Shown in pieces: positions 8,318 through 28,466 of a stretch of 64,000 bases of DNA. A model generated the notes under the pieces. The model did no database searches, had not been told where the DNA came from, and was given only the letters and a program-made list of their open reading frames with translations. The stretch is from an uncultured Pseudomonadota bacterium. Lineage in GTDB: Bacteria; Pseudomonadota; Alphaproteobacteria; Rs-D84. The stretch lies in assembly GCA_947306185.1 (NCBI GenBank), contig CAMZFU010000002.1, forward strand, positions 2,128 through 66,127, written 5' to 3'. Position numbers and translations under genes: made by a program. Numbering within the stretch: the first letter of the stretch is position 1; each line of letters opens with the position of its first letter.

Positions 8318-8433
8318 TTATTTTCTCCTTTTTATTATTTCTTATGCCCCAAGGGTAGAAAAAAAAACATACAATGTAAAGGAATAAGTGCAAATGATAA
8401 ATACCCATTGTTTAGCGATATTGCAAACAGATT

Positions 8434-9468
8434 TTATGCAACGGCGAAATTTAACCGTGGGGATACAAAATTAGATATTGAATTCGATATATTACCGATA
8501 TTACGGCATAGTTTATTAATCAGATTATACGTGCACGCCCATTTAAGCCACCCATGTGCCGATGCCAATTGGCCGACGGCGTGGTCACTGGTGTCACCAT
8601 AGTATGCGATATTCATTAATCGATGACGTATTTTTTTTACCCCCCGCGGCCGCAACAATACAAATTTTATAAAATGCCGGTAACCAATAATATTAACCCC
8701 ATGCGATACCGGATGCAGAAAATATTTTGATAAAATCAGTTTCAATTTATTACCCAAAAAGACATTTATACGTTGCAGATACCCCCACAAAGCATGTTTA
8801 TCATTACCGAACAAACAGAAATCATCACAATAGCGCAGGTAATCATGACAATGCAAAATATGTTTTACGAACATATCCAATTGATGCAAGTACACATTTC
8901 CCATCCATTGACTGGTCAGGTTTCCGATTGGCAAATTTGTATCACCGCCGACGGACCGCACGATATCATTTAACACCCGGATTAATCGACTATCGCCGAT
9001 TTTTTGTTTTAATATATCCATCATAATATCATGATTAATTGACGGAAAGAATTTTTTTATATCGCATTGCAGGTAATATTTATTTCTGCGTACGAATTGC
9101 ATTACGCGTTTTGATGCGGCATGCAATCCACGGCCGGGGATACACGCATAAGAATCACGAATAAACATCCGTTGCCAAATTGGTCCCAACACATTGATAA
9201 TTGCATGATGAACGATATGGTCGGGATAAAGTGGCAATTCATAGATATCCCGTTTTTTGGGTTCGTATATAGTGAACACGCGATAGTTTGATGTTTTGAA
9301 CGTTCCGTCCATCAGTGATTGGCGCAATTTTTTCAGTAAATTTTCGCTATCCGCCAAGAATTTTTTGGTAGATTTTTTATTTTTCTTGCTGCGCACGGCT
9401 TTTTTTGCGGCCAACCTAAAATTTTCTTCGGAAATAAATTCGTCCCACAAATTTTTGTAACGTTTCAT
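8434..9468 (-). CDS. diversity-generating retroelement reverse transcriptase
   Basis: The 344-aa protein has RT motifs QCDIKKFFPSINH and PGRGLHAA. It carries the DGR-diagnostic IGNLTSQ (nt 8908..8928), the YCDD catalytic box (nt 8821..8832) and a C-terminal HGWLKW..TYNL. It lies about 0.6 kb from a TR/VR pair with adenine-only mismatches. Confidence 0.93.
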   Translation of the reverse strand: MKRYKNLWDEFISEENFRLAAKKAVRSKKNKKSTKKFLADSENLLKKLRQSLMDGTFKTSNYRVFTIYEPKKRDIYELPLYPDHIVHHAIINVLGPIWQRMFIRDSYACIPGRGLHAASKRVMQFVRRNKYYLQCDIKKFFPSINHDIMMDILKQKIGDSRLIRVLNDIVRSVGGDTNLPIGNLTSQWMGNVYLHQLDMFVKHILHCHDYLRYCDDFCLFGNDKHALWGYLQRINVFLGNKLKLILSKYFLHPVSHGVNIIGYRHFIKFVLLRPRGVKKIRHRLMNIAYYGDTSDHAVGQLASAHGWLKWACTYNLINKLCRNIGNISNSISNFVSPRLNFAVA

Positions 9469-9469
9469 T

Positions 9470-9796
9470 TTACGAAAAGGAATAATATTTATCTATTTTT
9501 ACGATTGTTGTTTTGAATGGAATATTTCCTTTGACAGATTTTATTTGGTCCAACAAAACGACACTGCCGGTGAACAGGATACAAACTTCGCCATTAAACA
9601 CGAATTGTAATTGCAAACATTCCGCATTATCATGTTTTTTTGATTGTGTGATTCTAAAATCCACGATAAGTATTTCTTGGTTTAGAATATTATCCAATCT
9701 GCGTTTGGTTCCGGGCAACGGCAATTTATCCCGCGCGAACGCGGAAAATTTTGGGCAACCGTCTTGTTGTAACATATTTATTTCGTCCAAGGTCAT
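9470..9796 (-). CDS. DGR-associated small protein, candidate non-Avd accessory factor
   Basis: This 108-aa ORF lies between the TR and the RT. Its stop is 1 nt before the RT ATG (TAA-A-ATG), suggesting translational coupling. It is near-neutral (14 K/R vs 12 D/E by my count) with a beta-strand-like pattern, and I recognise no family. Confidence 0.6.
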   Translation of the reverse strand: MTLDEINMLQQDGCPKFSAFARDKLPLPGTKRRLDNILNQEILIVDFRITQSKKHDNAECLQLQFVFNGEVCILFTGSVVLLDQIKSVKGNIPFKTTIVKIDKYYSFS

Positions 9797-10058
9797 ATTC
9801 CGGCCCTTTGTTTTTACGATTGGATATCCCGGGCGTTCGCCACGATACAGAAACGGCTACTGACCCAGATATCCCCTGCGTTTTGTGTTTGTCCGACGCA
9901 ATCGGAACGATTACGTGCGGCCGGGCTGTGACATCCCACCTTGATGCAAGGCAGTATAGAAACAGGCATAATTGTGTTACCTGAAAAGTGTTTCATACAC
10001 TTTGTCCTGCAGGTTAGCAAAATTCTGTTTGGTATTCAGAATAACCGCACACCAAGAA
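9797..10058 (-). ncRNA. structured spacer region of the DGR RNA (between TR and accessory ORF)
   Basis: Several hairpins are visible on the minus strand: attctg/cagaat, aaagtgt/acacttt, ccttg/caagg and aatcg-ttc-cgatt with an extended imperfect stem. A ~12-bp GGGATATCTGGG / CCCGGGATATCC helix is also present. The position matches the spacer RNA of known DGRs. Confidence 0.45.
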
Positions 10059-10190
10059 GCGACAGCCCCAAAAACGCCCGACCGGAAGTCGGAGTTGTTG
10101 CGGACGTTGTTACCGCAGTTGTTCGCACAGTTGTCCGCACAATCGGACGACGACGAGTTCGAGTTGTTGAACACCCAGCGGGACACAGCA
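10059..10190 (-). repeat. DGR template repeat (TR)
   Basis: The 132-bp repeat aligns without gaps to 10701..10832. The coding-sense strand carries 23 adenines: ten AAC codons, one GAT and two GAC. It lies next to the RT and is not part of a credible secreted-protein gene. Confidence 0.92.
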
Positions 10191-10338
10191 ACACGACCAG
10201 CGATTCCAACCGTATTCGATACCACAGCCCATTCCTGTGCGTGACACACCGTTACACATTTTGGTGCGTCACACGCGGGAATTGTTCCAAATGCAAATGC
10301 ATTTGACCAAGGGTTCGCCTTTGGTGAAATGCACGGGG

Positions 10339-10612
10339 AGTGGGTAGTTGTTGGTGTAAGTTGTTGGTGTAAGTAAAACCACTCCCCACTAATCACTAAT
10401 CACTTCCACTTTTTCCCGTCATCCTGAACTTGTTTCAGGATGACGGCGTTCATTCTGATACCATTGTCATTCCCAGCGAAGCGTGGGAATCCAGTCAATT
10501 TGTGTTCCGTGCCGCTACCCACAACTTTTTATTCACTGGATTGCCACGGTCGTCCTTACGGACTCCCTCGCAATGACAATTTACACTCCCCACTAACACT
10601 AATCACTAACAC
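10339..10612. mobile_element. palindromic MITE-like dispersed repeat, copy A
   Basis: The 198-bp core (10401..10598) matches 11206..11403 with only 3 mismatches, and the flanks are also similar. Internal perfect 13-bp hairpin at 10416..10446 (ccgtcatcctgaa/ttcaggatgacgg). Further pairings are attccca/tgggaat and cattgtcatt/aatgacaat, and the ends are ttagtg/cactaa-rich and inverted. Confidence 0.6.
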
Positions 10613-10618
10613 TGCCCT

Positions 10619-10639
10619 GGGGGCGGGGTCGCCGCCCCC
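10619..10639 (-). promoter_or_regulatory. GC-only hairpin downstream of VR
   Basis: gggggcgg-ggtcg-ccgccccc forms a perfect 8-bp G/C stem. It lies 55 nt beyond the target-gene stop codon. Confidence 0.45.
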
Positions 10640-10667
10640 AGCCCCCCACCCATTACCGGTTTCCGTA

Positions 10668-10690
10668 CCTGATGTGCGTTGCACATCAGG
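10668..10690 (-). promoter_or_regulatory. hairpin immediately 3' of VR/target stop codon (candidate DGR target-recognition or terminator element)
   Basis: cctgatgtgc-gtt-gcacatcagg forms a perfect 10-bp stem with a 3-nt loop. It starts 4 nt after the stop codon (10694..10696) and no U-tract follows it. Confidence 0.55.
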
Positions 10691-10693
10691 GCA

Positions 10694-11119
10694 TCAATTT
10701 GCGACAGCCCCAAAAACGCCCGACCGGAAGCCGGAGTTGTAGCGGACGTAGTAACCGCAGCCGTTCGCACAGCTGTCCGCACAAGCGGACGACGACGAGA
10801 ACGAGGCGTAGAACACCCAGCGGGACACAGCAGGATGGGTCATTTTGCACCAACATTTAACACCACCCGTTTCGTATTGTTCGGCATTACTGGCCACCGC
10901 GTACGAACCGCCCGTGTCATTACACACCGCGACACCCGACACATTCCCGTACGGAAACACCGTTGTCCACGTCATATTTGCGGCATTATATGTATATGAC
11001 GTACCTTCGATATACGGGTCCAACACCACCGTGACATAATCAGATGCACTGCACATCACCGATGCAGATGCCGCCCCGGCCATCATCATCACAACAATTG
11101 ATACAATACATTTTTTCAT
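10694..11119 (-). CDS. DGR target: small secreted Cys-rich variable protein
   Basis: The 141-aa protein has a signal peptide (MKKCIVSIVVMMMAGAASASV). Its C-terminal 44 codons are the VR (…AVSRWVFYASFSSSSACADSCANGCGYYVRYNSGFRSGVFGAVAN*). An RBS-like aaaggaaag lies upstream. Confidence 0.9.
   Translation of the reverse strand: MKKCIVSIVVMMMAGAASASVMCSASDYVTVVLDPYIEGTSYTYNAANMTWTTVFPYGNVSGVAVCNDTGGSYAVASNAEQYETGGVKCWCKMTHPAVSRWVFYASFSSSSACADSCANGCGYYVRYNSGFRSGVFGAVAN
10701..10832 (-). repeat. DGR variable repeat (VR)
   Basis: The 132-bp repeat matches the TR at 119 of 132 positions. All 13 mismatches fall at TR adenines (plus-strand T). It ends 4 nt before the target stop codon. Confidence 0.92.
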
Positions 11120-11151
11120 ACTTTCTTTCCTTTGTTTTAGTGGTTAGTGGT

Positions 11152-11415
11152 AGTGGGTAGTTGTTAGTGTAAGTTGTTAATGAAAGTAAAACCACTAACA
11201 CTAATCACTTCCACTTTTTCCCGTCATCCTGAACTTGTTTCAGAATTCCGGCGTTCATTCTGATACCATTGTCATTCCCAGCGAAGCGTGGGAATCCAGT
11301 CAATTTGTGTTCCGTGCCGCTACCCACAACTTTTTATTCACTGGATTGCCACGGTCGTCCTTACGGACTCCCTCGCAATGACAATTTACACTCCCCACTA
11401 ACAACTAACACCAAC
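11152..11415. mobile_element. palindromic MITE-like dispersed repeat, copy B
   Basis: This is a direct repeat of copy A. The 198-bp core at 11206..11403 differs at 3 positions, all inside the 13-bp hairpin, which is degenerate here. Confidence 0.6.
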
Positions 11416-11420
11416 CTATC

Positions 11421-11562
11421 CCATCTGCCCGGGGGGCCAACCGTATTTTTTGCGGCCGGGACGTTTTTCCCCTTGTCGAAGGGGGGGAAACCCCGTTTTA
11501 CCGGGTAGGAATATGGAAGTACGCCCCGAAATACGGTGCAACAATTCCCCCCGGGCAGATGG
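11421..11562. repeat. long inverted repeat / large stem-loop downstream of the paralog gene
   Basis: A perfect 16-bp IR (ccatctgcccgggggg at 11421..11436, ccccccgggcagatgg at 11547..11562) is present. A 9-bp helix accgtattt/aaatacggt (11440..11448 with 11529..11537) extends it, and inner G/C-run hairpins are visible. Confidence 0.5.
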
Positions 11563-11573
11563 GACGGCGTGTT

Positions 11574-12008
11574 TTACCACACCGATTCCAATACCGCCGT
11601 ACGAAACGTCGTACTACTTTGCACCGCCGTTCCGCACGCCAATGTGCATCCCGATGCACATGACGATGCATCAGAATACGTATCTAAAAACACCCAATAC
11701 GACGACATCGGGGTTTGCATCGCACACCAACAATACGGACCTTCGTCCGCCGCAACGGTATATAATGCCGTGTTAACCGTGTTCGCCGTCCCGGTAATCT
11801 CGTTACAGGCCGCATCGCCCGTTATCGTGTAATTTGCAAATGTCGCCGACCATTTCTTGTCCGTGGCATTTGTTACCGATGCAGATGTGCCGTTGGTGGA
11901 TTTGCTGATTGATGCAATATATGTGTTCTTGTGTTTGCACATTGTCTGCGCGGATGCGCATGTAACCGCACATATTCCAATCAAACTTGTAATCATTATT
12001 CTTTTCAT
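11574..12008 (-). CDS. secreted Cys-rich protein, non-diversified paralog of the DGR target
   Basis: I place the start at the internal ATG 12008 (MKRIMITSLIGICAVTCASAQT signal peptide, RBS agggaa), giving 144 aa. It shares the scaffold MC..W..F....CN....CWC.M.P..S.WVF...C A..C...CG..V.....FR with the target. It has no DNA-level match to the TR. Confidence 0.8.
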   Translation of the reverse strand: MKRIMITSLIGICAVTCASAQTMCKHKNTYIASISKSTNGTSASVTNATDKKWSATFANYTITGDAACNEITGTANTVNTALYTVAADEGPYCWCAMQTPMSSYWVFLDTYSDASSCASGCTLACGTAVQSSTTFRTAVLESVW

Positions 12009-12025
12009 CTTGTTGTTCCCTTGGT

Positions 12026-12898
12026 TTATTTTGTTGTGTGATATATCGTCCCGTCGGGGCTTATAAGATTCACCGCACCAGGTGCATTGCCAGATGCCAA
12101 ATTGATATAGCATACGGCCGTAGGTGCCTGGACCCCCAATGCATGTTCTGTGGTTTTTTGTGCATATACCGGAAATGTATATGACCCAACATGCAATTTG
12201 GTGATTCCCCCACCACATAAGGGCACACATTGTCCGCCCCATGTTAATGATTCGCCTGTATCACAAAATGCCGTGCAAAAATCTTCGCTTTGGCGTTCGT
12301 CGCAATCAATCGCGTCAGATGCCCGAACGTAATTCGTACCGCACGTGCCCCCCGATGTGGGAACAAATGTCGTACCCGCACCCGATACATAATTAATCCA
12401 ACCCGTCGGACATTTCGTATTATCATTTGCCGTACAGGTACCATTATTCATATACTCGTTCGTGCCACACAACGTTGGTGCAGAATTCAATATCCCGCCC
12501 GTCGATATAACATACGACCCCGTCGGTACATTAAATAACGCCGTACCATTCCAACAATGCCCATTATTGTCTATGCCACCAACCGTCGTGGACGCGGTTG
12601 TTACCTCGAAATACCCGCTGTCGCAACGACCACGCGATAACGATGTACATGTGTCATCACTCATATATTCGTTCGTGCCACATAACGTAACTTCGTCTTG
12701 TAACAACATCCCGTTAAAGTATGCATTTAAATGTGACGGTGAATCATAAACCGCATAACCTGATGGGCAATGCCCCGATGTATCAATTGCGACAAATGTT
12801 GTTGTTCCACCCACGGTAACTGTATCCACTGGACACGTAACACCAAATGCCGCATGTCCAAAAAATACAAATAAAAATATAATATTTAATTTTCTCAT
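12026..12898 (-). CDS. secreted Cys-rich repeat protein
   Basis: The 290-aa protein has a signal peptide (MRKLNIIFLFVFFGHAAFG). It contains two ~70-aa internal repeats, each ending in TLCGTNEYM(S/N)xxTCT. The protein is G/T/C-rich and I recognise no family. Confidence 0.8.
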   Translation of the reverse strand: MRKLNIIFLFVFFGHAAFGVTCPVDTVTVGGTTTFVAIDTSGHCPSGYAVYDSPSHLNAYFNGMLLQDEVTLCGTNEYMSDDTCTSLSRGRCDSGYFEVTTASTTVGGIDNNGHCWNGTALFNVPTGSYVISTGGILNSAPTLCGTNEYMNNGTCTANDNTKCPTGWINYVSGAGTTFVPTSGGTCGTNYVRASDAIDCDERQSEDFCTAFCDTGESLTWGGQCVPLCGGGITKLHVGSYTFPVYAQKTTEHALGVQAPTAVCYINLASGNAPGAVNLISPDGTIYHTTK

Positions 12899-12932
12899 TT
12901 CCCCCGAATCCTATTTTTGTGTGCAACATACA

Positions 12933-12961
12933 CAAAAAACCGCCGATAAGGATCTGGCGGT
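12933..12961 (-). promoter_or_regulatory. terminator-like hairpin with U-tract in the leader of the Cys-rich gene (possible attenuator)
   Basis: On the minus strand the sequence reads accgcc-agatccttatc-ggcggt followed by tttttt. It lies 35-60 nt upstream of the ATG at 12898. The stem shares 2 nt with an alternative 9-bp helix (12960..12968 with 13022..13030). Confidence 0.4.
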
Positions 12962-13049
12962 CGGGGCGTTCGTAAATCACATAAAGCAATGATTCCTGGG
13001 CCTTTATATATACACCTCAGGCGCCCCGACTACGCGGGGACTTTTGCTT

Positions 13050-13116
13050 TTACGACACAAAATATCGAAAATTACGGATTACGACATATGTGCCGGCTTT
13101 ATGTGGGCTTACGACA
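13050..13116. promoter_or_regulatory. three direct TTACGACA repeats spaced 29-30 bp (candidate regulator binding sites)
   Basis: TTACGACA occurs at 13050, 13079 and 13109, with a related TTACGGA at 13072. The sites sit in the 400-bp non-coding gap upstream of 12026..12898. Confidence 0.35.
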
Positions 13117-13254
13117 GCCCAGAATGCAGATTCCCATCTGATTCGGTATGATTGTAAAAGAATTGCGATGTTATTGCAAGACATTTTCATGTATGTATTG
13201 TATCAAGATGGGCTACTAATACTGAACAGGAACAAAAGCGGGTTTATACACCGT

Positions 13255-13284
13255 AAAAAAAAATCGGATGCAAGAGCATCCGAT
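13255..13284 (-). terminator. intrinsic terminator of mutL
   Basis: On the minus strand the sequence reads atcggatgc-tctt-gcatccgat followed by a T9 run. It begins 23 nt after the mutL stop. Confidence 0.75.
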
Positions 13285-13306
13285 ACACTAAATCAATAAT
13301 ATTATT

Positions 13307-25270: not shown

Positions 25271-26467
25271 CTAATATTTTAATACCTTTTTAAGCCAGTT
25301 TCTATATGCCCCACGTCTTTCGCGCCCCGGCACGAATAAACTGCTGTACTTGATAATGAATCTTTTTATCTTTCTTACAAATGCATTTCCGTGCGTTTTA
25401 TTATATTCGGTCAACGCCTCTTCGTATTCTTGCCACGCATTGGCATCTACGCCCAAATCTTTATCGGTATATTTATATCCATATTTATCAAAGAATTCTT
25501 GCATATACTGATTAACCGCTATGATTTGTGGGGCACTGGTACTGTGGAAAGTTTGTATCGTTTCAACCGACCCAGATATAAATATGCCGTCCAAATGTTT
25601 TGTATTATTGACATTATTCTGAATCATCGCATTACATGCTGGTCGTCTATTACGCTTAATAGAAATCACGGTGCCACCGGGTTTCATAAACAATGCCAAA
25701 TGCAACGCGGTTCCTGCGCACCCCGCCAAAACATTACAATTTTTAACCAAAGCGATTTGTGTTTGTAGTGGCAGTTTTTCTGGGTAAATTATTTTGAACC
25801 CATTTTTTTCGAATACATTTTGGACCTTTTCTTCACCCAATGTTTTATGCAATTTATCCAGTTTCGCACGCGACACATAAATCTTGTCATATATTTCTTC
25901 ATCGGATACATTTTTGGCGATTCTATCAAATGTCTTGGCAAAAGAATCAGATGTATATAACCGCGCATTAAAACTTTGTGATGGTACACATACACTTCTG
26001 AATCTTGTGTTTTCTTCAAGTATTATGATATTTTCACGTTTAATTCCGAATAATTCTATAAATTGAAAAATATATCCCGGTATTGTCTGTAATCGTTTGT
26101 CGTTTATTAAAACTACTTTTCTGTCCTTGTACTTTTTATCCATTAATGCGTATATTCTGTTCATGTGTTCTAATAAAAAATGGCCAAAAAACGCATTTAC
26201 ATTTCCAATAAAGGCAACATCTTCGTCAACATACGGGATATTATCATGATTAAATTTTGGTATAAATTGTGATTTATTCCGACGCGTTTGCAAGGAATCT
26301 TTTACAAGATTAAAATCCTTGTCAAAAACGCCGAAACCACGTTCATGTTCATTCACAATAATGGCATTCTCAAAACACGTGATATGCGTATCTATTACAT
26401 ATTGCTTTGATATAGATTTTCTAAAATATTTCTTGAAATTTGATTCCCCAATAACTGTACAAGCCAT
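25271..26467 (-). CDS. glycosyltransferase family 61 (DUF563) protein, inverted paralog
   Basis: It has FFGHFLLEHMNRIYA and GCAGTALHLALFMKPGGTVISIKRN. I place the start at ATG 26467 (RBS aaagga). Confidence 0.7.
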   Translation of the reverse strand: MACTVIGESNFKKYFRKSISKQYVIDTHITCFENAIIVNEHERGFGVFDKDFNLVKDSLQTRRNKSQFIPKFNHDNIPYVDEDVAFIGNVNAFFGHFLLEHMNRIYALMDKKYKDRKVVLINDKRLQTIPGYIFQFIELFGIKRENIIILEENTRFRSVCVPSQSFNARLYTSDSFAKTFDRIAKNVSDEEIYDKIYVSRAKLDKLHKTLGEEKVQNVFEKNGFKIIYPEKLPLQTQIALVKNCNVLAGCAGTALHLALFMKPGGTVISIKRNRRPACNAMIQNNVNNTKHLDGIFISGSVETIQTFHSTSAPQIIAVNQYMQEFFDKYGYKYTDKDLGVDANAWQEYEEALTEYNKTHGNAFVRKIKRFIIKYSSLFVPGRERRGAYRNWLKKVLKY

Positions 26468-26480
26468 AGCATTTCCTTTG

Positions 26481-26509
26481 TTGAAAAACTGTAACAAACA
26501 TTGTATAGT
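26481..26509 (+). promoter_or_regulatory. sigma70-like promoter (cassette copy 1)
   Basis: TTGAAA-N17-TATAGT lies 100 nt upstream of the 26609 ATG. It is part of a ~54-bp repeat shared with 27559..27612. Confidence 0.45.
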
Positions 26510-26608
26510 AATGTCAAATATAAACACAAAACAATTTGTTAGGTTATGATCGGAACCAAATGTTAAACTATATACAATACAAAATATAATTAAACACAGG
26601 GTAAAAAT

Positions 26609-27523
26609 ATGTATCTATCGTTTCTCCAAAAAATATATAGAAAGCATTCTAGTTTAGTAAAAAAACTTTTACACATTTTTATACCATATCGGTCCGTGCG
26701 CACAAAGATAAAAATGGTTTGGGATTGGCCGTATGGGATAGAAGATTTCAAACAAAAAGAAAACACCTTACTTGCAGAAAACAATCAAAATTTTAAGTAC
26801 TTTTTATCTATTGTGGCGATTGCTAAAAATGAAGCTCTTAACTTTAAAGAGTGGATAGAATATCACAGAATCGTCGGCATAGAAAAATTTTATATCTATG
26901 ACAATGAATCGACAGACAGTACAAAAGAAATTTTACAACCTTACATAGACGCCGGTATCGTGGAATACATATACTTTCCCGGTGAAAAGATGCAACTTCC
27001 CGCATATGATCATTTTTTGACAAACTTCCGCCAAGACACCAAATGGGCAGCAACCATAGATCTTGATGAATTTATTGTATCTAAAAAAGAATCTCTTGTA
27101 TCTTTCTTAAAAGGCCAGCACAAAAACGTCGCCCAAATACTTGTTCCTTGGGTATTTTTTGGTTCAAACGGTCATATAAAGAAACCCGAAGGTCTTGTTA
27201 TTGAAAATTACACCAAACGCGCAAGAAGAGCAAAAATGTACAAAAGCATTTTTAGACCAAATTTAACCCTCAGTACACATGTACATAAACATTTTGTTGT
27301 CGGAAAAATGATTTTCCCAAACATGAAAGATATTATGGTCAATCATTATTATTGTAAATCTTGGGAAGAATATCAAAACCGTGCGACACGTGGCGATGTA
27401 TATCATGGAAATCAATTTGCAAAAGATACTTTTACCAAAAATAAATTTGACCAGAATGATATAAATGAAATAGAAGATACTTTTATTTTACAGTATGCGG
27501 ATAAAATAAAAGAAAAAATATAA
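26609..27523 (+). CDS. glycosyltransferase, GT2/GT92-like (DUF23-type)
   Basis: The segment LSIVAIAKNEALNFKEWIEYHRIVGIEKFYIYDNESTD is a pattern typical of this family. Confidence 0.65.
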   Translation: MYLSFLQKIYRKHSSLVKKLLHIFIPYRSVRTKIKMVWDWPYGIEDFKQKENTLLAENNQNFKYFLSIVAIAKNEALNFKEWIEYHRIVGIEKFYIYDNESTDSTKEILQPYIDAGIVEYIYFPGEKMQLPAYDHFLTNFRQDTKWAATIDLDEFIVSKKESLVSFLKGQHKNVAQILVPWVFFGSNGHIKKPEGLVIENYTKRARRAKMYKSIFRPNLTLSTHVHKHFVVGKMIFPNMKDIMVNHYYCKSWEEYQNRATRGDVYHGNQFAKDTFTKNKFDQNDINEIEDTFILQYADKIKEKI

Positions 27524-27568
27524 AACGTCTAAATTATTACTCTCGGTTACGTTACACTATTTCCTTTA

Positions 27569-27597
27569 TTGAAAAACCGTAGCAAACGTTGTATAGT
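27569..27597 (+). promoter_or_regulatory. sigma70-like promoter (cassette copy 2)
   Basis: TTGAAA-N17-TATAGT lies 18 nt upstream of the 27615 ATG. Confidence 0.45.
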
Positions 27598-27614
27598 GAT
27601 GTCAAAGATAAAAA

Positions 27615-28466
27615 ATGTCAAATATAAAGCGACTATTTTTATTTGCGGGTTATGATGCCAACGGCATTGTTGATGATGCGTTGATTCACCATATATCATC
27701 TATATCAAAATATGGTGATGTGATTGCCTTTATGGATTGCGATTGCAATGATGGCGAGATTTCTAAATTAAAACCATACTGCAAATATGCCGGTGCGATG
27801 CGCCACGGTGAATATGATTTTGGATCATATAAACGCGCATACCAATATGCATACGACAATAAAACGCTTAATAAATATGATGCGATTTTCTTGATTAATG
27901 ATTCTGTATTTGGCCCATTATTTGATATGTCCAATATTATCAAAAAAATTGATTCAATATCAGCTGATGCGGTGGGTTTGGTTGTATCAACACACAAAAC
28001 ACATTCATATATGGAATCTTGGTTTATACGGTTGAATAAAAGCATTTTCTTGTCTGATTGGTTCCGTGAATTTATACTTGGGGTAACAAAACAACCCACG
28101 AAAAACCGCGTTACAATAAAATACGAACATGGGCTTAGCGATTTGATACACGAACACAATCTTTCATGGGATGGTGTTTTTATCCGTCACGGCCGTTTTA
28201 CGTATAACCGCCCGAAAAAACTATGCAAAAGTGGGTGTCCATTTATTAAAAAGGCGTGCTTTACGCGGCACTATGGCGCACTAGGTAGTGAACTACGATA
28301 TATACTTAAACATTCCGACCGCAAGATTGCGAACAAAATTATGGATACCGCAAATCGTGTTTATGGCACGGATTATATGAATTGGTTATTAACGCGTAAT
28401 CCAATAAAAATATTATGGCGCAAAATGCGTTATGCGGTAAAAAAAATAAAGAACGGTAAGATATGA
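27615..28466 (+). CDS. rhamnan-synthesis protein F (RgpF)-like polysaccharide biosynthesis protein
   Basis: The pattern NDSVFGPLFDM ... ESWFIRLNKSIF ... IKYEHGLS resembles the RgpF family. Confidence 0.65.
   Translation: MSNIKRLFLFAGYDANGIVDDALIHHISSISKYGDVIAFMDCDCNDGEISKLKPYCKYAGAMRHGEYDFGSYKRAYQYAYDNKTLNKYDAIFLINDSVFGPLFDMSNIIKKIDSISADAVGLVVSTHKTHSYMESWFIRLNKSIFLSDWFREFILGVTKQPTKNRVTIKYEHGLSDLIHEHNLSWDGVFIRHGRFTYNRPKKLCKSGCPFIKKACFTRHYGALGSELRYILKHSDRKIANKIMDTANRVYGTDYMNWLLTRNPIKILWRKMRYAVKKIKNGKI

Follow-up and report, generated by a model that had tools for sequence, protein, structure and literature searches.

A chromosomal diversity-generating retroelement with a non-Avd accessory gene in a Candidatus Enterousia-like gut alphaproteobacterium

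The locus described here lies on the minus strand of a 64,000-nucleotide (nt) stretch of contig CAMZFU010000002.1 (assembly GCA_947306185.1, positions 2,128 to 66,127 of the forward strand; hereafter the window, whose first letter is position 1 of all coordinates given below) and is very probably a complete, chromosomal and recently active diversity-generating retroelement (DGR) of a Candidatus Enterousia-like gut alphaproteobacterium. Its template repeat (TR) and variable repeat (VR) differ exclusively at template adenines, and the surrounding cassette encodes a DGR-type reverse transcriptase (RT), an accessory protein that is not Avd, a conserved structured RNA and a small secreted target protein. 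Three of these features have no description in the databases and literature that were searched, namely the non-Avd accessory family, a lineage-specific RNA and a small, probably non-lectin target, all of them described by computational means. The claims on the accessory family and the RNA rest on strong comparative evidence and that on the target on structure prediction and the periodicity of its variable positions. A preliminary description of the window, made from its letters, had read the repeats correctly as a DGR pair but did not include these three components.

An adenine-specific repeat pair

The TR (10059..10190) and the VR (10701..10832) are both encoded on the minus strand, extend over 132 nt and align without gaps at 13 mismatches, with the homology stopping abruptly at both ends. 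The TR is the copy that carries adenine at every mismatch position: all 13 differences are a plus-strand T in the TR, i.e. an A on the coding (minus) strand, replaced in the VR by T at six, by G at five and by C at two sites. The coding strand of the TR contains exactly 23 adenines, confined to codon positions 1 and 2 of ten AAC, one GAT and two GAC codons, and 10 of these 13 adenine-bearing codons are altered in the VR. The repeat begins with 22 nt and ends with 30 nt that are free of adenine and identical in both copies. For 13 randomly placed mismatches, the probability of all falling on the 23 adenine positions is 3.6e-12. Since every TR adenine occupies the first or second position of an AAC or GAY codon, 13 residues can be randomised without stop codons ever arising, and the theoretical repertoire amounts to 15^10 x 4^3 = 3.69e13 protein variants.

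The preliminary description had put forward the same anatomy, and realignment, recounting and retranslation reproduced it throughout: the gapless 132-bp alignment with 13 mismatches at plus-strand T of the TR, the assignment of the 23 adenines to AAC, GAT and GAC codons, the ten changed codons, the adenine-free flanks of 22 nt (5') and 30 nt (3'), the quoted translations of both repeats and the repertoire, given there as about 4 x 10^13. Tabulation of the mismatch classes yielded zero non-adenine mismatches and zero indels in this TR lineage. When both strands of the window were scanned with adenine positions ignored, only these two copies and no third one were returned, so that the window holds one TR and one VR. 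A 139-residue (aa) open reading frame (ORF) across the TR (9977-10396) was considered as a gene and rejected, having neither a family nor an argument from conservation.

Recent rewriting of the variable repeat

The TR is identical over 132 of 132 positions in six loci, comprising the window and the related loci L011, L081, L016, L082 and L084, and six different VRs accompany it, with 13, 18, 13, 14, 12 and 14 differences from the common TR, respectively. All 84 substitutions in these VRs fall on TR adenines (25 to T, 35 to G and 24 to C), while none of the 654 non-adenine positions is changed. Across the six VRs, 22 of the 23 TR adenines vary, and the proportion of mutated adenine sites (61%) is close to the density of roughly 50% reported for DGRs of Bordetella and Bacteroides. 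At the protein level, the mature products of seven target alleles differ only at the 13 adenine-bearing codons.

Two pairs of assemblies from different samples reveal how recent these changes are. L081 and L011 are collinear over 10,426 nt and show 15 differences, all at adenine sites of the VR, with none in the remaining 10.3 kilobases (kb), and L016 and L082 show 15 differences over 7,324 nt, all within the VR, with none in the remaining 7.2 kb. As the assemblies of each pair are identical over 7-10 kb apart from the VR, the element has been active very recently: the rewriting of the VR is younger than any point mutation in the surrounding 7-10 kb. The repeats are a genuine DGR pair: the reading given in the preliminary description is supported by the DGR-type RT described below, by the 84 of 84 substitutions at adenine sites and by the strain pairs that differ only in the VR. 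Two more distant cassettes, with RTs 79% and 75% identical to that of the window, possess adenine-biased TR/VR pairs of their own; both are located in different genomic contexts, and one of them has its VR gene downstream of the RT gene.

A reverse transcriptase with a non-Avd partner

The RT gene (8434..9468, minus strand) encodes 344 aa and is read from the same strand as the TR, 590 nt downstream of it. Its product is an RVT_1 protein that matches phrog_1423 of the PHROGs collection (E 3.6e-97) and aligns over its full length (residues 2-319, E 5.9e-46) with chain A of the PDB entry 8ub7. This chain is the RT of the Bordetella phage (bRT), since its numbering fits the residues discussed in the cryo-EM paper (K29, F66, I76 and I181/G182) and its tblastn identity to BPP-1 brt is 100%. 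The sequence IGNLTSQ at residues 181-187 corresponds to the DGR signature [I/V/L]GxxxSQ, in place of which other RTs carry QGxxxSP (PMC7826257). R73 takes the place of bRT R74, a residue that promotes adenine mutagenesis jointly with I181, and the catalytic YCDD is found at position 213. Judged by the motif and the full-length alignment with bRT, the RT is of the DGR type. The RT family comprises 1,710 proteins at E <= 1e-10, nearly all of them from uncultured Alphaproteobacteria of gut or rumen. One locus with a 99% identical RT (L001) lies on a contig that starts 114 nt upstream of the accessory gene and contains neither TR nor VR.

The accessory gene (9470..9796, minus strand) encodes a protein of 108 aa with an isoelectric point (pI) of 8.5, and its stop codon abuts the start codon of the RT gene. 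No family was found for the protein in Pfam, NCBIfam or PHROGs and no sequence relative in the PDB, and a comparison of its family with BPP-1 Avd by hhalign returned a probability of 0.15%. The accessory protein is not Avd. Among 64 species-representative genomes that encode it, the RT gene adjoins the accessory gene in 62, mostly following within 0-30 nt, and adenine-biased repeats are present at 41 of the 64 loci, with many of the remainder cut by contig ends. An exhaustive profile search delivered 827 clusters at 50% identity, mostly of 95-110 aa, and three longer members are RVT_1 proteins with the accessory domain at the C-terminus, i.e. RT fusions. Scanning viral contigs with distant members of the family added 238 relatives, 80 of which (L085-L164) underlie the following counts: an adjacent RT gene is found in 75 of the 80 phage loci, the order is RT followed by accessory gene in 74, as in the fusions, and adenine-biased TR/VR pairs occur in 66. 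Adjacency to the RT gene in 62/64 genome and 75/80 phage loci and the existence of RT fusions indicate that the accessory protein is not a bystander.

An AlphaFold2 (AF2) model of the accessory protein (pLDDT 89.6) is mostly beta, with the order b1-b2-b3-helix-b4-b5. Foldseek matches to this model are weak (best E 0.1, TM 0.35-0.54) and dominated by oligonucleotide/oligosaccharide-binding (OB) domains, among them RuvBL2 DII (probability 0.98, TM 0.48-0.54), hSSB1, RPA, HIN-200 and PrgE, and the sequence searches found no sequence-level link to OB-fold proteins. The predicted topology is OB-fold-like, and the protein would take part in cDNA synthesis or homing.

A conserved RNA and signals for homing

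The 262 nt between the TR and the accessory gene (9797..10058, minus strand) are non-coding and are predicted to form a structured RNA. The distance from the TR end to the accessory gene is 212-291 nt in most loci, and 31 of these spacers can be aligned, with invariant blocks. A long-range helix (CCUGC/GCAGG) closes the shared structure, which also contains the hairpins AAAGUG/CACUUU and CAGRYA/URYCUG. Directly in front of the accessory gene follows a 12-bp stem, whose internal loops bear the motifs YAGUAG and CGAACG. RNAalifold applied to the 31 spacers predicted a structure with 29 pairs, 20 of which are maintained through double changes. A control on a slightly extended structure of 34 pairs, in which pairing partners were slid by 1-3 columns and 500 shuffles were generated, gave 96.7% paired cells for the actual structure versus 30-46% for the slid versions, and 112 versus 10-26 cells with double changes; none of the 500 shuffles reached any of the observed measures. 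The structure is conserved and strongly supported by covariation. A scan of the whole window with Rfam gave no match. Motifs of the 3' domain recur in the TR-RT spacers of phage DGRs with the same accessory family, and none of them is found in the BPP-1 spacer. The RNA downstream of the BPP-1 TR interacts with Avd and bRT, primes the synthesis of cDNA and determines where the cDNA ends (bioRxiv 10.1101/2023.10.23.563531), and by analogy the RNA at this locus would fulfil an equivalent role.

TR and VR diverge directly after the adenine-free 30-nt 3' end, where the VR continues with AAATTGATG, which includes the stop codon, and the TR with TTCTTGGTG. This segment is plausibly an end that resembles the initiation of mutagenic homing (IMH) element. 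Ten nt past the end of homology, the VR is followed by a hairpin (10668..10690, minus strand) with a 10-bp stem (CCTGATGTGC/GCACATCAGG) and a 3-nt loop (z = -2.66), which is absent after the TR. Compensatory changes keep the stem in the 79% and 75% relatives (L002 and L008), so that the 5' stem exists in the versions CCTGATGTGC, CCTGATGCGC and CACGATGCGC, all of which are complemented by their 3' arms. In 16 of 40 loci, the VR is followed by a perfect stem of at least 7 bp, and in distant loci the hairpin occupies a different position or is missing. BPP-1 carries an analogous GGGGCC-GAAA-GGCCCC hairpin about 6 nt after its VR, reported as needed for target recognition (PMC3240598), a suggestive parallel that makes the VR hairpin a candidate target-recognition element. 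A second, small hairpin (TCCGRCTTCCGGTCGGG followed by CGTTTTTGGG) was called terminator-like in both repeats (10077-10093 and 10719-10735, minus strand). As it lies in the invariant adenine-free 3' segment, TCCGRCTTCCGGTCGGG may be part of a priming or homing structure rather than a terminator.

A small secreted target protein

The target gene (10694..11119, minus strand) encodes a secreted, Cys-rich protein of 141 aa, whose residues ~97-140 are specified by the C-terminal VR and whose stop codon lies 4 nt past the repeat end. A signal peptide precedes a mature part with seven conserved Cys. Searches of Pfam, NCBIfam and PHROGs gave no family and searches of PDB sequences no relative; the homologues number only 62, all from uncultured Alphaproteobacteria and none with a Pfam domain. 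Within this family, the scaffold is conserved (C23, W51, C66, CWCKMTHP, WVF, C113, C117 and C121) and the variable positions cluster in the last 40 residues.

The AF2 model of the target is confident (pLDDT ~95 for residues 30-140) and consists of five strands followed by two helices (110-127 and 129-140), with the VR occupying the strand 101-106 and both helices at a pLDDT of ~97. Foldseek found no match for the model in the PDB (best E 0.67, TM ~0.2) or in BFVD (best E 0.24), and no C-type lectin variable protein appeared in either list. Without recourse to the model, column entropy across the VR in the family alignment shows its strongest period at 95 degrees per residue, and the layout of the adenine-bearing TR codons gives the same value; an alpha-helix advances by ~100 degrees per residue and a strand by 160-180 degrees. 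The residue pattern of the VR reads xxCA xxCA xxCG xxVR xxS. Model and periodicity together suggest that the VR is probably displayed on alpha-helices and that the target is not a lectin.

Upstream of the target lies a paralogue of 144 aa (11574..12008, minus strand) that is not diversified. It is 34% identical to the target, keeps the scaffold residues (CWC...WVF...C-x3-C-x3-C) and is 98.9% identical in L011; it has no TR-like match, and searches of Pfam, NCBIfam, PHROGs and PDB sequences returned no family. Many loci contain a second, weaker match to the target family upstream of the target. The paralogue is preceded by a gene for a secreted, acidic protein of 290 aa (12026..12898, minus strand; 16 Cys, pI 4.6), which opens the conserved block of the cassette. 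Its sequence contains internal repeats, e.g. 12432-12475 and 12645-12688, and no meaningful family match was found among Pfam, NCBIfam, PHROGs and PDB sequences. For the target, the paralogue, the 290-aa protein and the accessory protein taken together, these searches yielded no hits beyond Fab chains and Max at E > 0.09, regarded as noise. Both genes precede the target and are conserved together with it in many loci, and their products may form a complex or share an operon with the variable protein.

Genomic context and neighbouring elements

In the 5'-to-3' direction of the minus strand, the cassette consists of the 290-aa gene, the paralogue, the target gene with the VR, the hairpin, the TR, the RNA, the accessory gene and the RT gene. 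It is flanked by mutL, greA and lptF on one side and by yajC and secDF on the other, and the element is chromosomal, as these housekeeping genes surround it. The block of ~8,320-13,300, from the 290-aa gene through the RT gene, is 98-100% identical to L011 except for the VR and two insertions (99.0% for the 290-aa gene), whereas the flanking mutL, greA, yajC and secD are 81-86% identical. This difference indicates that the whole cassette was recently shared between diverged lineages at one chromosomal site, and it implies either recent transfer or recombination at that site or a gene-specific sweep. More distant cassettes occupy other genomic contexts. The accessory/RT pair occurs in genomes that bear the name Candidatus Enterousia or that of uncultured Alphaproteobacteria and that come from rumen, horse, deer, sheep and human gut, and the host of the window is a Candidatus Enterousia-like gut bacterium of the order Rs-D84. 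Members of Enterousia have genomes of less than 1 Mb, and their metabolism suggests that they depend on partner organisms (PMC12306168).

The order of the cassette varies among relatives. In L008-L010, the TR keeps its place upstream of the accessory gene and the VR gene is found downstream of the RT gene; L050 and L072 have TR and VR alike downstream of the RT gene; and in L061, the target gene is inserted between the accessory gene and the RT gene. L042 combines one TR with two VRs, whose mismatches fall on adenines in 13 of 13 and 18 of 18 cases. The DGR region (10-12 kb) has the highest G+C content of the window (0.51, at ~0.40 for the window as a whole), and a local dip to 0.32 is seen at 26000-28000.

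A repeat element of ~215-270 nt is present in two copies of 93-96% identity (10394-10610 and 11199-11415), with flanks at 10336-10383 and 11149-11196, one copy in each of the two intergenic regions of the cassette. It has inverted ends rich in GTTAGTG/CACTAAC and contains the palindromes CCGTCATCCTGAA...TTCAGGATGACGG and TTCCCAGCGAAGCGTGGGAA. These are the only two copies in the window, and both sites are empty in L011. The copy between VR and TR is present or absent depending on the strain, with a VR-to-TR distance of either 431-445 nt or 642-644 nt. The element looks like an insertion of the miniature inverted-repeat transposable element type that targets GTTAGT-repeat sequence. A role of this ~270-nt duplication in the birth of the TR or as a part of the DGR was considered and rejected, because both sites are empty in L011, although its TR is the same and its VR active, and because other strains either have or lack the copy between VR and TR. 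Two further structures are conserved in L011: a long, GC-rich inverted repeat (CCCATCTGCCCGGGGGG ... CCCCCCGGGCAGATGGG) that encloses ~130 nt after the paralogue (11416-11580, minus strand), and a GC-rich palindrome (CTGGGGGCGGCGACCCCGCCCCCAG) after the VR hairpin (10610-10650, minus strand). They may represent terminators or another small repeat element.

Discussion

The components described above can be combined into a model of mutagenic homing. The TR would be transcribed together with the downstream 262-nt structured RNA, and the RT, assisted by the 108-aa OB-fold-like protein in place of Avd, would copy the TR into cDNA while placing random bases opposite template adenines. This cDNA would then replace the VR at the 3' end of the target gene, with the direction of homing set by the adenine-free identical 3' end, the divergence directly behind it and the hairpin found only after the VR. 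Thirteen residues would thereby be randomised without stop codons, giving access to ~3.7e13 protein variants. Given their spacing of 3-4 positions, the variable residues would come to lie along one side of a C-terminal helix on an otherwise invariant small secreted protein, and this face would presumably serve as a surface for binding a ligand or partner.

The locus has several features in common with the BPP-1 DGR (mtd-avd-TR-brt). Both possess a single TR and a single VR of ~130 nt at the 3' end of the target gene, and the repeats differ specifically at adenines, which sit in AAC-type codons. The two RTs are homologous over their full length and share the [I/V/L]GxxxSQ motif as well as R74 or its equivalent. 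In both, a structured RNA is located between TR and RT gene, and a GC-rich hairpin lies a few nt after the VR. In contrast to BPP-1, no avd is part of the cassette and the 108-aa OB-fold-like gene stands between TR and RT; the spacer RNA measures 262 nt compared to 144 nt, with none of the lineage motifs in common; and the target is a secreted protein of 141 aa with no lectin match rather than a phage tail-fibre lectin, encoded on a chromosome rather than by a phage. About 74% of DGRs possess Avd, which the prototype cannot do without, and about a quarter lack avd (PMC5758913); because Avd is not universal, its absence is no bar to membership among DGRs. The locus resembles the avd-less DGRs of architecture A of Wu et al. 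2018, which have no avd homologue and a small conserved gene beside the RT (PMC5758913). Published work distinguishes Avd, HRDC, MSL, CH1 and, tentatively, PAG1-4 as accessory classes; CH1 proteins are acidic and measure 160-169 aa, MSL resembles MutS and HRDC is an established domain (PMC5758913). By its size and charge and the lack of a Pfam match, the protein described here (~100 aa, pI 8.5) is set apart from CH1, MSL and HRDC. A full-text search of the literature, limited to the searchable library, found no paper that ties DGRs to an OB-fold accessory protein.

Resemblance also extends to the DGRs of episymbiotic CPR and DPANN lineages, which are likewise chromosomal, reside in very small genomes and diversify a small secreted or surface protein. 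Here, the host is an alphaproteobacterium of the animal gut, whereas CPR elements mostly show the order TR-(avd)-RT with Avd (PMC5758913) and have lectin-type targets. The phage DGRs detected in IMG/VR (L085-L164) share a homologous accessory protein, a DGR-type RT, adenine-biased TR/VR pairs and, in the 3' part of the RNA, the motifs ACAAAACG, a stem, GGCYAGUAG and GAACG. They differ in their order, which is VR-TR-RT-accessory compared to VR-TR-accessory-RT in the window, and in a shorter spacer of about 105-190 nt in the examples read, and none of the 80 loci encodes a homologue of the target protein of the window.

A number of points weigh against the reading of the locus as a recently active DGR with a distinct helper, RNA and target. 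The priming and homing steps are inferred, and promoter and terminator scans were uninformative, with counts equal to those in shuffles. An Avd-like ORF is absent from the cassette in a search that covers the 64-kb window, and an Avd may be encoded elsewhere in the genome. The OB-fold assignment of the accessory protein depends on a structure model and weak Foldseek matches, and the helical, non-lectin VR on an AF2 model built from only 39 sequences and on the periodicity argument, while uncharacterised VR domains are expected to prove C-type lectin variants (Roux et al., PMC8144416). Diversification was read from a comparison of assemblies of different samples. Furthermore, VRs are identical within L011-L015 (five samples), within the P0005 group and within the P0003 group, and one TR of the P0005 group has drifted at a non-adenine position relative to all VRs. 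The preliminary description had held that related strains with identical VRs would count against activity; this applies to the sample groups that share one VR, but other relatives with identical flanks differ in the VR. As several groups share one VR, diversification is either episodic or certain alleles have become fixed or persist, and the drifted TR suggests long quiet periods in that lineage.

Among the alternatives, a standard DGR throughout retains the most weight and is nevertheless unlikely: the 108-aa gene would be a bystander or an Avd that has diverged strongly, and behind the incorrect AF2 model of the target would stand a divergent C-type lectin. The VR presumably bears a loose likeness to lectin-type VRs, with a W near the start, AAC pairs and FR near the end. 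Distant folds can escape Foldseek, Avd proteins show very low conservation and are similarly small (PMC5758913), and new C-type lectin variants keep appearing among VRs that are described as 'systematically' lectin-like (PMC8144416). These arguments are opposed by the hhalign probability of 0.15% against BPP-1 Avd and by a mostly beta model with OB topology that does not resemble the protomer of a helical barrel. The linkage of the accessory gene to the RT gene in both genome and phage loci and the RT fusions are likewise at odds with a bystander, and the confident model of five strands followed by two helices, the lack of a lectin match in PDB and BFVD and a period of variability that is helical (95 degrees) rather than that of a strand speak against a lectin.

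It is even less probable, and indeed quite improbable, that the locus is a fossil DGR, in which the repeat pattern records past activity and no diversification now takes place in the lineage of the window itself. The VRs shared across the L011 lineage (five samples) and inside each of the groups P0005 and P0003 would fit this alternative, as would the drifted TR, and no second assembly of the window's strain was found, with P0121 providing the only identical target protein and with exact-sequence look-ups of the RT, the accessory protein and P0121 returning no record. However, all parts are intact, including a full-length RT with YCDD and IGNLTSQ, the accessory gene, a TR without non-adenine mismatches and the conserved RNA, and among cassettes that share the TR of the window and have an RT 99.2% identical to its own, assemblies that agree in all other respects are told apart by the VR alone, which places activity after the origin of any single-nucleotide polymorphism in the flanks. 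An ordinary tandem or segmental duplication of the 3' end of a gene, diverged by normal mutation or selection without reverse transcription, deserves almost no credence and is already refuted by base specificity: the ~270-nt segment doubled upstream of both copies gives the appearance of one larger duplication, but it is a separate insertion absent at both L011 sites, the mismatches fall on one base of one copy (13/13 with P 3.6e-12, 84/84 across six loci and 0/654 elsewhere), the changes lead to all three other bases and a DGR-type RT is adjacent.

Beyond the single locus, we tentatively propose a large, undescribed branch of DGRs in gut Alphaproteobacteria and many phages, characterised by an OB-fold-like replacement of Avd of ~100 aa, either adjacent to the RT or fused with it, a conserved RNA domain of its own and, in Enterousia, a non-lectin helical scaffold pinned by cysteines; as a whole, this proposal is about evenly poised, with slightly more to be said against it than for it. 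'Avd-independent mutagenic homing' was left as an open question by Wu et al. 2018 (PMC5758913). If the proposal holds, the branch would supply the missing component of such 'Avd-independent' mutagenic retrohoming and provide a first counter-example to the C-type lectin rule for DGR variable regions.

To our knowledge, DGRs are the only natural machines for targeted hypermutation of proteins in prokaryotes, nearly all of their mechanism has been learned from one Avd-dependent phage system, and every solved DGR variable protein has a C-type lectin fold. DGRs are also under development as tools for directed evolution. A compact, active DGR with a different helper makes Avd-independent retrohoming directly testable, and the RNA partner supported by covariation can guide its reconstitution. 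The accessory family is abundant (827 clusters), unannotated and present in both phage and cellular DGRs, and the 141-aa target with its probably helical display surface is a possible minimal scaffold for engineered diversification. For the organism itself, the DGR cassette is the best-conserved 5 kb of its neighbourhood among Enterousia lineages whose flanking genes have diverged by ~15%. Because this conservation is found in a host with a genome of less than 1 Mb that probably depends on partners, it points to a key role of the variable protein in host or partner recognition.

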